Origin: Candidatus Nomurabacteria bacterium
GTDB taxonomy: Bacteria; Patescibacteriota; Patescibacteriia; HK-STAS-PATE-3
Direction of reading: 5' to 3'
DNA: 64,000 nt
Assembly: GCA_023898465.1 (NCBI GenBank)
Contig: CP060223.1
Location: 32,001-96,000 of the forward strand
Shown here piece after piece: positions 259 through 17,799 of this stretch. Every line of letters starts with the position of its first letter. The stretch's first letter is position 1. The position numbers were made by a program, and so were the translations under genes. The notes under the pieces are model-generated. The model had not been told where the DNA came from. It saw only the letters and a list, made by a program, of their open reading frames with translations, and made no database searches.

Positions 259-831
259 ATGATAATCTCGATCTCAGGAAAGCCAGGCTCTGGGAAAAGC
301 TCAGTTGCAAAGGCGATTGCTCAGGAGCTTGGCATCGAGCGATACTACATGGGAAAACTTTGGCGCGAGAAATCTCGCGCCAAAGGCTTGACCCTACTCG
401 AGGGAGAGATTCAGGGTGAGTCTGATAAAACTATTGATAATGAGATTGATGAGTATCAGCGAGAACTTGGTCAGACCAAAGATAATTTTGTGATTGAGGG
501 GAGGACCTCGTTTTATTTTATTCCACACTCGTTTAAAATTTATCTCGACGTTGATCTTAGCGAGGGTGCCAAGCGTATTTGGAGCGATGTGCAAAAAAAT
601 CCGCATGAGCGGAATGAGGATCGTGATCTTGATAGTCTAGAAAAGGTAGAGCAAAGCAATGCGAGACGGATTAAGAGTTATGCGCTTCGATACAAGAAGT
701 TCTACGGCATTGAGAATATTGATGACCCTAAGCACTACGATTATTATCTCGACACCACAGGTCTGAGCTTTGCTGAAGTGAAAGAAGCAGTCTTCCAGGC
801 CATCCGACAGGCGAGTGGGGACAAGTCATAA
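259..831 (+). CDS. cmk: cytidylate kinase-like P-loop nucleotide kinase
   Basis: N-terminal Walker A motif ISISGKPGSGKSSVAKAIAQELG. Length is 190 aa and the gene is adjacent to the S1 protein gene. Confidence 0.55.
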   Translation: MIISISGKPGSGKSSVAKAIAQELGIERYYMGKLWREKSRAKGLTLLEGEIQGESDKTIDNEIDEYQRELGQTKDNFVIEGRTSFYFIPHSFKIYLDVDLSEGAKRIWSDVQKNPHERNEDRDLDSLEKVEQSNARRIKSYALRYKKFYGIENIDDPKHYDYYLDTTGLSFAEVKEAVFQAIRQASGDKS

Positions 832-1292: not shown

Positions 1293-1551
1293 CCAAAAAA
1301 GTTTGTAGCATTACGCTTGTCTTTTACGGGGAGCTAGAATAATATGGCTATGTGGCGATCAAAAAGGTGATCGCTATTTTTCATAGGAACTCACAAAAAG
1401 AATATATCTTCCCGAGGCAGTTTATTTTGTTACTACAGTAACAAAATTCCGTGAACCTTTCTTTTTAGATAACTCCCTTGCTCGATTATTTATTGAGCAG
1501 TTATATATTGCGAAGAAGCTAAAAGAATTCAAATTATACGCTTATGTAATA

Positions 1552-1932
1552 ATGCCAGATCATGTACATATTTTGATTGAGCCAGGAGTACGCTATTCAA
1601 TTTCAAAAAGTATGTTTACGATAAAGAAGCAATTCGCACATGAGGCTAACCGTATGCTGGGTTGGAATGACAAGAGAATAATAAATTTCTCCTCCGCAGG
1701 CGAACAAACGTTTGTTCGCCTGCGGGAGTTTGTAAATTTACATCATCCTAGCTATGGGCAGAAATTTCATTGGCAAAAATCCTTCCATGATCACGTCATC
1801 CGTGACCAAAGGGATTTCAATCACCACGTGAATTATCTACACCTCAACCCGGTGAAAGATGGATTGGTGAAGAAACCCGAAGACTGGCCTTATTCATGCT
1901 ATGACGCTTTTTTGAAAGGCGATTTACTTTGA
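1552..1932 (+). mobile_element. IS200/IS605-family HUH (Y1) transposase TnpA / RAYT-like; the N-terminus appears truncated
   Basis: HUH motif YVIMPDHVHILIEP and C-terminal YLHLNPVKDGLV...DWPYSCY are typical of IS200-like TnpA. Similarity extends upstream of the Met in frame (KLKEFKLYAYVI), but that frame closes at a TAG at 1465 with no ATG, so about 40 N-terminal residues are missing. Confidence 0.6.
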
Positions 1933-1954
1933 TTGATGCCATTCCTCAATAAGC

Positions 1955-1986
1955 ACAAAAACATCCTTACCTGGTGAGCGCAGAGG
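1955..1986. repeat. 32-nt direct repeat copy 1 (tRNA-Lys 3' end plus 3' flank), followed by degenerate tRNA-Lys fragments and hairpins
   Basis: acaaaaacatccttacctggtgagcgcagagg is identical to 2269-2300. A second 20-nt tRNA-Lys segment (cccccaacccgttgcttaag) recurs at 2127-2146. Two perfect hairpins lie between them (cccgccGACTggcggg around 1989; gtgactgca-gcag-tgcagtcac at 2076-2097). Confidence 0.7.
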
Positions 1987-2268
1987 CCTGCCCGCCGACT
2001 GGCGGGGACTCGAGTCCGGGGTCAAGTGATTCCTCATAAATTCGGAATAACACTTGACCCGTCTCCGCAGTGCGTGACTGCAGCAGTGCAGTCACTTTCG
2101 TCTATCGACGAAACTGCTCTGACCCCCCAACCCGTTGCTTAAGGTTTGAGCGGCATCCTGAGGAATCTCAGGATAGCAAGCAAACTGTTTTGCTTGCGGC
2201 CGCGAAAACGGGCAAGGGTTGCGAACAGAGTGAGCCTCCTTGCCCAGTTAGCAACTGTGTTACGGAAA

Positions 2269-2300
2269 CAAAAACATCCTTACCTGGTGAGCGCAGAGGG
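2269..2300. repeat. 32-nt direct repeat copy 2, overlapping the 3' end of the intact tRNA-Lys
   Basis: Identical to 1955-1986. Confidence 0.7.
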
Positions 2301-2359
2301 ACTCGAACCCCCAACCCGTTGCTTAAGAGGCAACTGCTCTACCATTGAGCTATGCGCCC
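2285..2359 (-). tRNA. tRNA-Lys (anticodon CUU)
   Basis: The reverse complement folds as a 75-nt cloverleaf: acceptor GGGCGCA/UGCGCUC, D-arm GCUC-AAUGGUA-GAGC, anticodon stem GUUGC with loop CUCUUAA, T-arm GGGGG-UUCGAGU-CCCUC, and an encoded CCA. Confidence 0.85.
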
Positions 2360-2441
2360 CCAGGTAAGAATGTTTTCTCGAAAATTTTTAGAACGTAGGC
2401 AGGATACTGTGTTTTCCGATTCTATGCAAGTCCTACGCCTT

Positions 2442-2518
2442 TGGTGCGGCCGGAGGGATTCGAACCCCCGACCTACTGGTCCGAAGCCAGTCGCTCTATC
2501 CAACTGAGCTACGGCCGC
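2442..2518 (-). tRNA. tRNA-Arg (anticodon UCG)
   Basis: The reverse complement is GCGGCCG-UA-GCUC-AGUUGGAUA-GAGC-G-ACUGG-CUUCGGA-CCAGU-AGGUC-GGGGG-UUCGAAU-CCCUC-CGGCCGC-A-CCA, 77 nt, with an Arg-type D-loop. Confidence 0.85.
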
Positions 2519-2593: not shown

Positions 2594-2995
2594 TTAGACT
2601 GACGGCGGCGTTGGGGGAGTAATCTCGCCACTTTCGACAGCTTCATTGCTTGGCTGAGGTGCTGCAGGTGTATGTGACTCATCTTGCACATCATCTAATG
2701 ATGGATGTGCATGCGTTGCTTGTTTCAATGAATCTTTTAGATTCTTTCCTGCCTTGAATTTTGGCACGGTGACTGTTGGGATTTGAATACGCTCAGAAGG
2801 GTTTTGTGGATTCACGCCACCTCGTGCTTCGCGTACACGAGCGCTAAAGGTGCCAAAGCCAGTTAAGGTAACTTCGTCATTTTTTTGCAGCGTTTCAATC
2901 GTAATACCTTCAAATGCATCAAGTACTTCCTCCACCTGTTTTTTTGACAGGCCGACTTTTTGGGCGATTTGTTCTGACAATTCTGCTTTGTTCAT
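2594..2995 (-). CDS. hup: HU-family DNA-binding protein with a Pro/Glu-rich C-terminal extension
   Basis: MNKAELSEQIAQKVGLSKKQVEEVLDAF...FGTFSARVREARGGVNPQNPSERIQIP is a clear HU/IHF fold signature. Confidence 0.85.
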   Translation of the reverse strand: MNKAELSEQIAQKVGLSKKQVEEVLDAFEGITIETLQKNDEVTLTGFGTFSARVREARGGVNPQNPSERIQIPTVTVPKFKAGKNLKDSLKQATHAHPSLDDVQDESHTPAAPQPSNEAVESGEITPPTPPSV

Positions 2996-16744: not shown

Positions 16745-16820
16745 GGTGGCTATAGCACAGTGGTTAGTGCACCGGGTTGTGGTCCCGGTGACATGGGTTC
16801 GAATCCCATTAGCCACCCCA
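16745..16820 (+). tRNA. tRNA-His (anticodon GUG) with encoded G-1 and CCA
   Basis: G-GUGGCUA-UA-GCAC-AGUGGUUA-GUGC-A-CCGGG-UUGUGGU-CCCGG-UGAC-AUGGG-UUCGAAU-CCCAU-UAGCCAC-C-CCA. Confidence 0.85.
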
Positions 16821-16845: not shown

Positions 16846-17799
16846 TTATTCGTCTTCGTCTTTTTCATCCCTCCGCCGGCCATGAAAGGCTTTGTACACT
16901 TCACGTAGCTGCGCATTAGTAACGTGGGTGTATATTTGCGTGGTCGTAATAGAGGAGTGGCCGAGCAATTCCTGCACAGAGCGAATATCAGCACCATTCA
17001 TTAGCAGGTCAGTAGCAAAGCTGTGCCGCAGGGTATGCGGTGTAATCTTTTTCGTAATCCCGGCAATCGCGGCGTAGCGCTGCACCATCCGTTGGATAGA
17101 GCGGGGCGTAAGTGGACTGACTTCCTCGCCTTGTATCTCATCACTTTTTCCAGCAGCTCGATCATGTCGGACAAACAGCGCATCGTTGCCGTCGCGCCGC
17201 ATCTGCAGGTAGTGTCGGATCGCCTGCTTCGCTTGTTCAGAAATAAATACCAGTCGGACTTTGCCGCCTTTACCCTTGACCGAGAATTCATCCTTTTCCA
17301 GGTTGAGACTGTTGCGCTGCAGTTTCGCTAACTCGGAAATACGTAATCCCGTTGAGAAGAGTGTTTCGAGAATTGCTCGGTCGCGTTGCTTCACGATGTC
17401 GCTGCTTGGACTTTTATATGGAGCTTGCAAGAGTTGCTCCAAATCCTCTGAATCAAGGAAGTTGACAGAGCGCTGCGACTGTTTCATTAGCTCAATTTTT
17501 TCTGGAGCTAGTGAAGCAATATCGTGTCGCGATAGATATTTCAAAAATGAACGCAGGGCAATGAGGTGGTAGTTTTGCGTTGAGGCTTTAAGAGTTTCAC
17601 TATCTTTACCGAGCAGGCGATTCAACTTCAAACGAAAAGAGCGCACATTCGCCTCGGTAATATCCTTAGGAGTTTTTACTCCGCTCAGCTCAAAAAAGCG
17701 CGTGAGATAAAAATCATAATTGCGGACAGTGAGTTGACTCCGTCCACGCTCGATTTCGAGATACTCAAGAAATTCAGTTTTTAGCTTTTGCAGATCCAC
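16846..17799 (-). CDS. tyrosine site-specific recombinase, XerC/XerD family
   Basis: 317 aa with an N-terminal SAM-like domain (LEYLEIERGRSQLTVRNY) and a C-terminal catalytic domain (HTLRHSFATDLLMNGADIRSVQELLGHSSITTTQIYTHV). Confidence 0.85.
   Translation of the reverse strand: MDLQKLKTEFLEYLEIERGRSQLTVRNYDFYLTRFFELSGVKTPKDITEANVRSFRLKLNRLLGKDSETLKASTQNYHLIALRSFLKYLSRHDIASLAPEKIELMKQSQRSVNFLDSEDLEQLLQAPYKSPSSDIVKQRDRAILETLFSTGLRISELAKLQRNSLNLEKDEFSVKGKGGKVRLVFISEQAKQAIRHYLQMRRDGNDALFVRHDRAAGKSDEIQGEEVSPLTPRSIQRMVQRYAAIAGITKKITPHTLRHSFATDLLMNGADIRSVQELLGHSSITTTQIYTHVTNAQLREVYKAFHGRRRDEKDEDE

Follow-up and report, generated by a model that had tools for sequence, protein, structure and literature searches.

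A 281-bp insert made up of hairpins and displaced pieces of tRNA-Lys lies just downstream of an intact tRNA-Lys gene in a 64,000-nucleotide stretch of DNA (hereafter called the window) from a 1.08 Mb contig, part of a Patescibacteria metagenome-assembled genome (MAG) deposited as Candidatus Nomurabacteria. Identical copies of a 32-nt sequence that includes the 3′ end of the tRNA gene bound the insert on both sides, and in a close relative the same locus lacks precisely the insert and one of the two copies. We favor, with moderate confidence, the interpretation that this segment is a decayed or miniature integrative element that has no integrase of its own, resides at the 3′ end of tRNA-Lys and resembles a cis-mobilizable element (CIME). 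Entry of a mobile element into a tRNA gene is a known and common kind of event, and the present case is unusual only in its tiny, hairpin-only content.

Repeated and displaced tRNA-Lys sequences

The intact tRNA-Lys(CUU) gene, which encodes its own CCA, occupies positions 2285-2359 on the minus strand (ARAGORN; 71.4 bits with Rfam). Its 3′ end overlaps a 32-nt sequence at 2268-2299 that is found again at 1955-1986, downstream of the tRNA and in the same orientation, with 32 of 32 positions identical (blastn within the window, E = 4e-12). According to the ARAGORN coordinates, the repeat consists of the last 15 nt of the tRNA (the 3′ strand of the T-stem, the 3′ strand of the acceptor stem, A73 and the encoded CCA) and 17 nt of trailer, the latter corresponding to 2268-2284 in the copy proximal to the gene. 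An earlier note on this DNA had recognized the exact repeat, although it placed the second copy 1 nt away (2269-2300) and described its composition as 17 nt of tRNA and 15 nt of flank, which the tRNA coordinates contradict. An intact tRNA at one end and a 3′ fragment of the same orientation at the other constitute the direct-repeat geometry of an integrated element that targets a tRNA gene, with the proximal copy being attL-like and the distal copy attR-like. The DNA between the repeats spans 281 bp (1987-2267), and the whole unit with both repeats extends from 1955 to 2299.

Two additional pieces of tRNA-Lys are present between the repeats, also on the minus strand, and these retain the order and orientation that they have in the tRNA. 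The T-loop piece GGGACTCGA at 2005-2013 matches tRNA positions 2298-2306 at nine of nine nucleotides. The longer piece, GACCCCCCAACCCGTTGCTTAAG at 2121-2143, matches 2305-2327 at 22 of 23 positions, includes a core of 20 identical nucleotides detected by blastn (E = 6e-5), and spans the anticodon (C34), the 3′ strand of the anticodon stem, the variable loop and the 5′ strand of the T-stem. A 20-nt portion of it had been noticed before, at coordinates (2127-2146) that we correct to 2124-2143. Taken together with the distal repeat, these pieces make up the 3′ half of a tRNA-Lys copy that begins in the anticodon loop, at C34, and takes in the whole trailer, with a summed identity of 63/64. Only tRNA positions ∼34-76 are thus represented, in three pieces, and two interruptions separate them, one of ∼107 nt (2014-2120) located at the T-loop and one of ∼20 nt (1987-2006) within the T-stem. 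A further 9-mer, AACTGCTCT at 2112-2120, had been taken for a tRNA-Lys piece in permuted order. The 9-mer is present, but its match to the D-stem/anticodon-stem region of the tRNA is only borderline, being reached in 51 of 1000 shuffles (∼0.05).

No tRNA is called anywhere in 1955-2284 by ARAGORN or by the Rfam tRNA model, even at E ≤ 10, and the 5′ half of a second tRNA-Lys is absent. The distal copy of tRNA-Lys is not a tRNA gene.

An empty site in the closest relative

Pattern scans with the neighboring YmdB gene, run on GTDB genomes and on JGI metagenomes, yielded only relatives of ≤57% identity with no conserved tRNA synteny. The useful relatives of the locus came from protein searches, after which the corresponding contigs were looked up. 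The closest relative, L040, is a single contig of 1074 nt from dataset SRR17818317 whose HU protein shares 92% of its amino acids with that of the window, and whose DNA is 92-96% identical. Positions 1-832 of L040 align with window positions 3096-2270 at 91.8% identity, positions 803-1020 align with window positions 1986-1771 at 95.9% identity, and the two alignments overlap on L040 positions 803-832, which is the single copy of the repeat in that genome. Exactly 313 nt of the window, made up of the 281-nt insert and one repeat, are missing from L040. It has a single tRNA-Lys and one copy of the 32-nt sequence, after which the neighboring gene for a REP-associated tyrosine transposase-like protein (RAYT; REP, repetitive extragenic palindrome) follows directly, such that the tRNA trailer ends 2 nt from the RAYT stop codon. 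L040 therefore carries an exact empty site. Because repeats of the tRNA 3′ end occur together with an exact empty site in a close relative, the data support the reading of this locus as an att-like scar of integration into a tRNA 3′ end, which the earlier note had put forward along with a search for such a site.

A more distant relative, L038 (dataset SRR32105342; 83% amino acid identity for YmdB, 76% for HU and ∼75% nucleotide identity), has the same gene order as the window, YmdB-HU-tRNA-Arg-tRNA-Lys followed by a convergent RAYT gene. The distance from the tRNA to the RAYT stop codon is 68 nt in L038 versus 352 nt in the window, and neither the tRNA fragment nor the hairpin cluster is present there. 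However, L038 retains the 38 nt that adjoin the trailer of the functional tRNA in the window (2230-2267), an arm of the insert that we call X and that is absent from L040. The core of X, CAGTTGCTAACTGGGCAAGGA, is identical at 21 of 21 positions against a background identity of ∼75%. Judged by this match, X in L038 looks like the fossil of an insert, either this one or a relative of it, that once occupied the site. This partial remnant is the only sign that the element occurs in another host. Between the RAYT stop codon and X, L038 has 11 nt (AGGACAATAAC) that can be aligned either with the outer edge of a distal trailer copy (ACAAAAAC) or with the window sequence CAATAAGC. This alignment hints at an internal deletion in L038, and is suggestive rather than decisive. 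The tRNA-Lys sequence is identical in the window, L040 and L038, and a second tRNA-Lys was found in neither relative. Insert borders of 1955|2229, drawn from the comparison with L038 only, were superseded when L040 revealed that the natural borders are the 32-nt repeats.

Logan contigs from SRR12358676, the dataset of the same strain as the window, match the window at 100% of positions as far as 1723 and again from 2270 onward. The contig ends at 2270 (L015) and at 1723 match the 32-nt repeat and a 32-nt palindrome located within the RAYT gene, either of which is expected to branch a k = 31 assembly graph. That the contigs stop exactly where these sequences break the graph argues against a misassembly in the MAG. 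No Logan contig covering the insert is on record from exact look-ups with RAYT fragments.

Structure and content of the insert

Folding of a 330-nt stretch of this region gives z-scores relative to shuffled sequences of −6.4 for the minus strand and −7.1 for the plus strand. Thus, the segment is far more structured than expected by chance. The ∼20 nt inserted in the T-stem of the displaced fragment (1987-2006) form the hairpin CCCGCC-GACT-GGCGGG (1991-2006), next to which the mini-hairpins CAG-AGGC-CTG and GGAC-TCGA-GTCC (2006-2017) are formed with tRNA-derived bases. Three perfect hairpins occupy the ∼107 nt inserted at the T-loop (2014-2120), at 2019-2060 (10 bp plus 5 bp), 2074-2095 (9 bp, GTGACTGCA-GCAG-TGCAGTCAC) and 2096-2113 (7 bp). 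Beyond the longer tRNA piece, an insert-specific segment that is absent from both L040 and L038 (2144-2229) is predicted to fold as a three-way junction, in which outer stems GTTT/AAAC and GCGGC/GCCGC surround hairpins at 2155-2174 (8 bp) and 2176-2197 (9 bp). The sequence GGGCAAGG at 2210-2217 pairs with 2238-2245, and X carries the small hairpin CAGTT-GCT-AACTG. Two of these structures, at 1991-2006 and 2074-2095, are present just as the earlier note described them. At least five others accompany these two, all of the stems are perfect Watson-Crick helices, and most loops are 4 nt long. The insert hairpins share no consensus among themselves. Alignment of X to a degenerate tRNA-Lys anticodon arm (CAGTTGC ... 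GCAAG) was rejected as not significant, the score being reached by 6-19% of shuffles, as was alignment of the three-way-junction segment to an inverted copy of the tRNA piece when compared with shuffles.

Perfect hairpins with stems of ≥8 bp are concentrated in this part of the window, with seven of the 20 in the entire 64 kb falling in the first 2.2 kb. Long perfect palindromes also occur there in ordinary coding sequence, including one at 358-385 with 13-bp arms in a cytidylate-kinase-like gene and one at 1424-1447 with 11-bp arms that encodes the conserved YFVTTVTK strand of the RAYT protein.

Three hairpin patterns of the insert, searched with ≤3 mismatches, have no further copy in the 64-kb window. 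A blastn comparison of 1300-2420 with the whole window returned tRNA-derived matches only, with no further copy of any part. When the insert was tiled against local templates on both strands (±1.5 kb), 8-mers matched at chance level and nothing longer was found beyond the tRNA pieces.

An integrase gene was not found between the repeats, where the 281 bp hold only short open reading frames (ORFs). The longest ORF across the insert (2070-2345, 92 amino acids) has no match among 1.84 billion protein representatives. Rfam searches at both gathering and permissive thresholds detected only three tRNAs in the whole window and in the segments 850-2650, 1940-2300 and 930-1300. Likewise, 1940-2300 has no blastn match in phage and plasmid collections, and none of the sequences sought as exact matches in viral contigs, namely the core plus trailer, two of the hairpins and the X core, was found there. 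Because of the Rfam result, a tmRNA was dropped from consideration. A group I intron was dropped as well, since no Rfam group I match was obtained and tRNA-Lys is continuous. As in the Patescibacteria tRNA genes that contain such introns, homology breaks off in an anticodon loop and the sequence is structured and non-coding, but here the structured DNA lies downstream of an uninterrupted tRNA and not inside it.

The sole tyrosine recombinase gene of the window is located ∼14.5 kb from the insert (16846-17799). Its product has a Phage_integrase domain and a SAM-like N-terminal domain, is XerC/D-like, and is encoded 26 nt downstream of tRNA-His (16746-16820). It is conceivable as a trans-acting recombinase. 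No fragment of tRNA-His occurs elsewhere in the window, so that no island is delimited beside the recombinase gene.

Origin of the insert

Genomic islands can be delimited by a regenerated tRNA gene and a displaced 3′ fragment of it, which is the principle used by Islander (PMC4383910). The locus resembles the tRNA-targeted islands and prophages of tyrosine integrases in that an intact tRNA is accompanied by a 3′ fragment of the same orientation downstream, identity continues past the CCA, and a relative has an empty site. Unlike these elements, the insert contains neither an integrase nor any other gene, measures 281 bp rather than kilobases, and has a displaced fragment into which two hairpin-forming segments are inserted. 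Since the repeats enclose no coding sequence, the insert comes closest, among named categories, to the CIME, in which attL and attR are retained and integration genes are lost (PMC5704250). The 3′ ends of tRNA-Lys genes are known targets (PMC5704250). The repeats are intact at 32 of 32 positions and enclose no genes, as in a CIME. However, described CIMEs are kilobase-sized, come from Firmicutes and have known partner integrative and conjugative elements, whereas this insert has hairpins only, no known partner element and at most a putative mobility.

In our interpretation, an integrase would have carried out recombination within sequence common to the element and the tRNA gene, such that the functional tRNA now owes its 3′ end to the proximal copy (2268-2299). 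The 3′ fragment displaced to the far end probably extended originally from C34 to the trailer. Two hairpin insertions now divide this fragment and leave 32 bp as its longest intact part, and no integrase remains. Were the insert to be lost, whether a trans-acting recombinase removed it or the 32-bp repeats recombined with each other, exactly the arrangement of the closest relative would result. The hairpins might have no function of their own. If correct, the locus shows neatly and on a small scale how DNA enters and leaves a tRNA site in an ultra-small Patescibacteria genome, although by itself it opens no new question. For annotation, the tRNA fragments in this region should be treated as a scar, and short 'transposase' calls as a resident RAYT gene in decay.

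Several observations weigh against an integrative element. The insert has no integrase gene, falls short of described islands and CIMEs in size by orders of magnitude, and has no relative among the phage, plasmid, viral-contig and ORF searches made. Its displaced fragment is interrupted twice, which calls for extra events or for an element whose tRNA-like arm was already broken. Perfect Watson-Crick stems with 4-nt loops are unusual for decaying DNA. The empty site is seen in a single short contig of low-coverage type, and three genomes do not polarize the direction of change, since a gain in the window genome would look no different from a precise loss by way of the 32-bp repeats. In addition, the part shared with L038 is the tRNA-proximal part, which implies either that the insert is older than the split between the window genome and L038, or that related inserts came in on two occasions. 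For an old insert, the complete identity of its repeats requires homogenization. Both repeat copies in the window have a run of five T residues, in place of the six in L040 and L038, and this common variant suggests a recent duplication or homogenization.

The same structure might have arisen by local rearrangement with no mobile element involved, and of the competing explanations we take this one most seriously, although we judge it unlikely. Serial template switching or break repair with filler DNA would have copied the tRNA-Lys 3′ half and its trailer downstream and produced fold-back hairpins. L040 would have lost the block by recombination between the 32-bp repeats, and X would be an ancestral spacer kept in L038. 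Template switching has been described as creating hairpins with perfect stems and loops of ∼4 nt (PMC8794818), a signature that the insert shows. Several of its stems pair older with adjacent new sequence, the older strands being the T-arm sequence GTCC (paired with GGAC), the acceptor-strand sequence CTGC (with GCAG) and the X sequence GGGCAAGG (with CCTTGCCC). Also consistent with this explanation are the presence of X in L038 without the distal repeat, the local enrichment of perfect palindromes even within the coding sequences of cmk and RAYT, and the failure to find an integrase or another copy of the insert. However, template switching rewrites sequence locally, and it leaves ∼210 nt of new sequence and the 32-bp direct duplication unexplained. 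Those ∼210 nt have no template within ±1.5 kb beyond chance 8-mers, and alignments of the insert-specific segments to the tRNA are not significant. The explanation also demands that duplicated sequence was inserted non-tandemly and that L040 later deleted it precisely, and at least seven independent fold-back events within 281 nt are many for a short time.

A bolder version of the integrative-element interpretation takes the 313-bp unit, comprising the 281 bp and a 32-bp core, for a mini-integrative element of Patescibacteria that is still living but not autonomous. It would consist only of hairpins and a tRNA-like arm, would enter and leave the 3′ end of tRNA-Lys through a recombinase provided in trans, and would recur within the clade, being present in the window, excised in L040 and a fossil in L038. 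A variant has the hairpins made or moved by the neighboring Y1 enzyme. We consider a living element quite unlikely. If a 0.3-kb unit containing only hairpins is mobile, it would be among the smallest site-specific integrative elements known.

Alternatively, the insert could be a structured RNA domain transcribed from the minus strand together with the tRNA-Arg/tRNA-Lys operon, where it might act between the convergent tRNA operon and RAYT gene as a terminator, as an insulator or as a module that protects or processes the 3′ end. Such a role is compatible with an origin from an element or by local rearrangement. The insert is predicted to be extremely stable (z = −6.4 on the minus strand), and no recognizable terminator separates it from tRNA-Lys immediately upstream. 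Both properties would fit such a domain, as would the perfect match of the X core between the window and L038 and the conserved helix formed by the tRNA-Lys leader and trailer, in which a G·U pair is compatible with the tRNA-sense strand alone. Against such a domain, the insert is missing from the closest relative, and G·U pairs are absent from the insert stems, which fold equally well on both strands, so that there is no strand-specific signal at the RNA level. No Rfam family matches, and homologous copies that could reveal covariation are lacking. A structured RNA domain thus seems a rather remote prospect.

RAYT genes are typically flanked by REP clusters. The earlier note had suggested that the hairpins may be the cognate ends of a decayed element of the IS200/IS605 or RAYT type. 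They would then be REP-like sequences, or the left and right ends (LE/RE) of a Y1-transposase element, deposited through the activity of the adjacent gene. That gene does encode a Y1 HUH enzyme in which both the HUH motif and the catalytic tyrosine are present, and a cluster of short, stable hairpins abuts its 3′ end. Proximity of such hairpins to a Y1 gene is also seen for the REP sequences and bacterial interspersed mosaic elements of RAYTs and for the ends of IS200/IS605 elements and their non-autonomous derivatives. In contrast to such sequences, the insert hairpins lack a mutual consensus, three of their patterns are unrepeated in 64 kb, and the cluster is absent at the orthologous RAYT loci of L040 and L038, where no LE/RE hairpins travel with the gene. 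Direct repeats of 32 bp are not generated by Y1 transposition. The gene also scores below the IS200 cut-off and carries two frameshifts in the window, and the hairpin that is conserved in its subfamily resides inside the gene (1694-1725) and is unlike those of the insert. We therefore regard this proposal as very improbable.

The proposal that tRNA-Lys was ancestrally duplicated in tandem, and that the second gene then decayed where it stood, deserves scarcely any credence. The description of a second tRNA-Lys disrupted by insertions is accurate to the extent that a distal 3′ half is split by two insertions and that co-linear pieces cover positions 34-76 and the trailer. However, a 5′ half and a match by ARAGORN or the Rfam model are missing, neither relative has a second tRNA-Lys, and 63/64 identity in combination with gross structural disruption is unlike slow decay. 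Least credible of all is an assembly artefact, in the insert of the window or in the empty site of L040: short-read graphs do break at repeats and palindromes, L015, L017, L038 and L040 all end at such sequences and L040 is only 1074 nt long, but the SRR12358676 contigs are identical to the window and end exactly at the expected graph branch of a real 32-nt repeat, and L040, with 4-8% divergence from the window and a trailer variant of its own, is identified as another strain with a continuous path through the site.

A decaying RAYT gene and its internal hairpin

The transposase-like gene next to the insert (1367-1932, plus strand) was previously labeled IS200-like. Its product matches the RAYT profile NF047646 of NCBIfam with 134 bits (E = 2.7e-39, cut-off 80) over profile positions 3-146 of 146, has a Pfam match to Y1_Tnp, and retains the HUH motif and the helix that bears the catalytic tyrosine. 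In contrast, the IS200 model NF033573 yields 28.2 bits against a cut-off of 55. Thus, the gene is a RAYT and not an IS200 TnpA.

The gene had also been said to lack its N-terminus, which the profile match does not bear out. The main frame is open from 1387, with the rest of the protein running from 1399 in the −1 frame. All RAYT homologues start with M(x)HRNSQKR, and the window encodes HRNSQK at 1382-1399 in another frame. Because the reading frame of this motif differs from the main frame and meets it at a run of five A residues (1395-1399), we place a 1-nt frameshift in that run. A −1 slip there would restore the N-terminus of the family, and the run itself is confirmed in the Logan assembly of the same strain. 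The only canonical start codon in the HRNSQK frame, and hence a possible start, is the GTG at 1367, while NCBI calls the gene from the ATA at 1402 (176 amino acids). A second frameshift is evident relative to L040, since a 1-nt deletion near 1920 in the window leads to a premature TGA at 1930-1932 and the loss of the last eight residues (...GDYTLIDAIPK* in L040 and ...NYLLIDSFPFD* in L038, versus ...GDLL* in the window). The 22 nt between the RAYT stop codon and the distal repeat in the window (1933-1954) are represented in L040 by the same sequence, which there encodes the last RAYT codons. Judging from these comparisons, the RAYT domain is complete, and the gene is nearly full-length but decaying in the window genome. 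Orthologues occupy the same locus in L040 and L038, neither with a hairpin cluster at the 3′ end. RAYT is a vertically inherited resident neighbor, and neither part of the insert nor the transposase of the element.

The RAYT coding sequence contains a perfect 32-nt palindrome (1694-1725), which encodes AGEQTFVRLR and is identical in the window and in L038 (2479-2507). L040 has a different perfect palindrome in the same place (1047-1074; 28 nt or the same length), swapped together with the following ∼45 nt. Among RAYT homologues of 36-46% identity, L018 (3033-3611) has a compensatory change in this hairpin, and L041 (1363-2061) and L044 (99-686) have different stems. The same alignment columns in an AT-rich homologue, L042, contain no hairpin. 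The outer motif CCGNAGGCG...CGCCTNCGG of the in-gene hairpin recurs. On the basis of these alignments, the position of the hairpin is conserved within the RAYT subfamily while its sequence varies. The hairpin could be the substrate of RAYT itself or could provide control at the mRNA level. Although a by-product of this work, it may be worth more than the insert.

Other features of the locus

The tRNA-Lys leader (2360-2376, minus strand) is complementary to the CCA and trailer (2271-2287), and extends the acceptor stem by 17 bp to end in a U-run. The fold of this leader/trailer helix has a z-score of −6.3, and the one G·U pair that it contains in the window fits the tRNA-sense strand only. The helix is conserved in L040 (726-742 with 815-831, 17 of 17 pairs Watson-Crick) and in L038 (2082-2098 with 2171-2187), and a 4-bp version is found at tRNA-Arg. 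The helix might serve as a processing stem, or else as a bidirectional terminator that the convergent RAYT gene also uses.

The tRNA-Arg(UCG) gene (2442-2518, minus strand) lies upstream of tRNA-Lys in the same presumed operon. The spacer that separates the two (2377-2441) is ∼88% identical to that of L038 (2017-2081), in a locus where the surrounding identity is ∼75%, and may be under constraint. Further in this direction are the gene for HU (2594-2995, minus strand), that for YmdB, and then that for RNase Y. On the other side lies the cytidylate kinase-like gene (cmk, 259-831, plus strand), which is separated from RAYT by a gene-poor stretch of ∼550 nt. This stretch includes a sigma-70 promoter on the plus strand (910-938, TTGACA-17-TATACT, 11 of 12 consensus positions) and an intrinsic terminator (1268-1283). 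The ∼340 nt between them (944-1292) have no convincing ORF and match no Rfam family, yet fold with a z-score of −7.0, and look like a candidate unannotated structured RNA.

Farther along the window, from ∼23900 to 56300, is a run of very large genes of up to 2840 codons whose products have fn3, purple-acid-phosphatase-N-like and DUF2341 domains. Short DNA matches within this run recur every ∼5 kb, near 37.6, 42.6, 47.8 and 53.3 kb, and the genes probably encode paralogous surface proteins.

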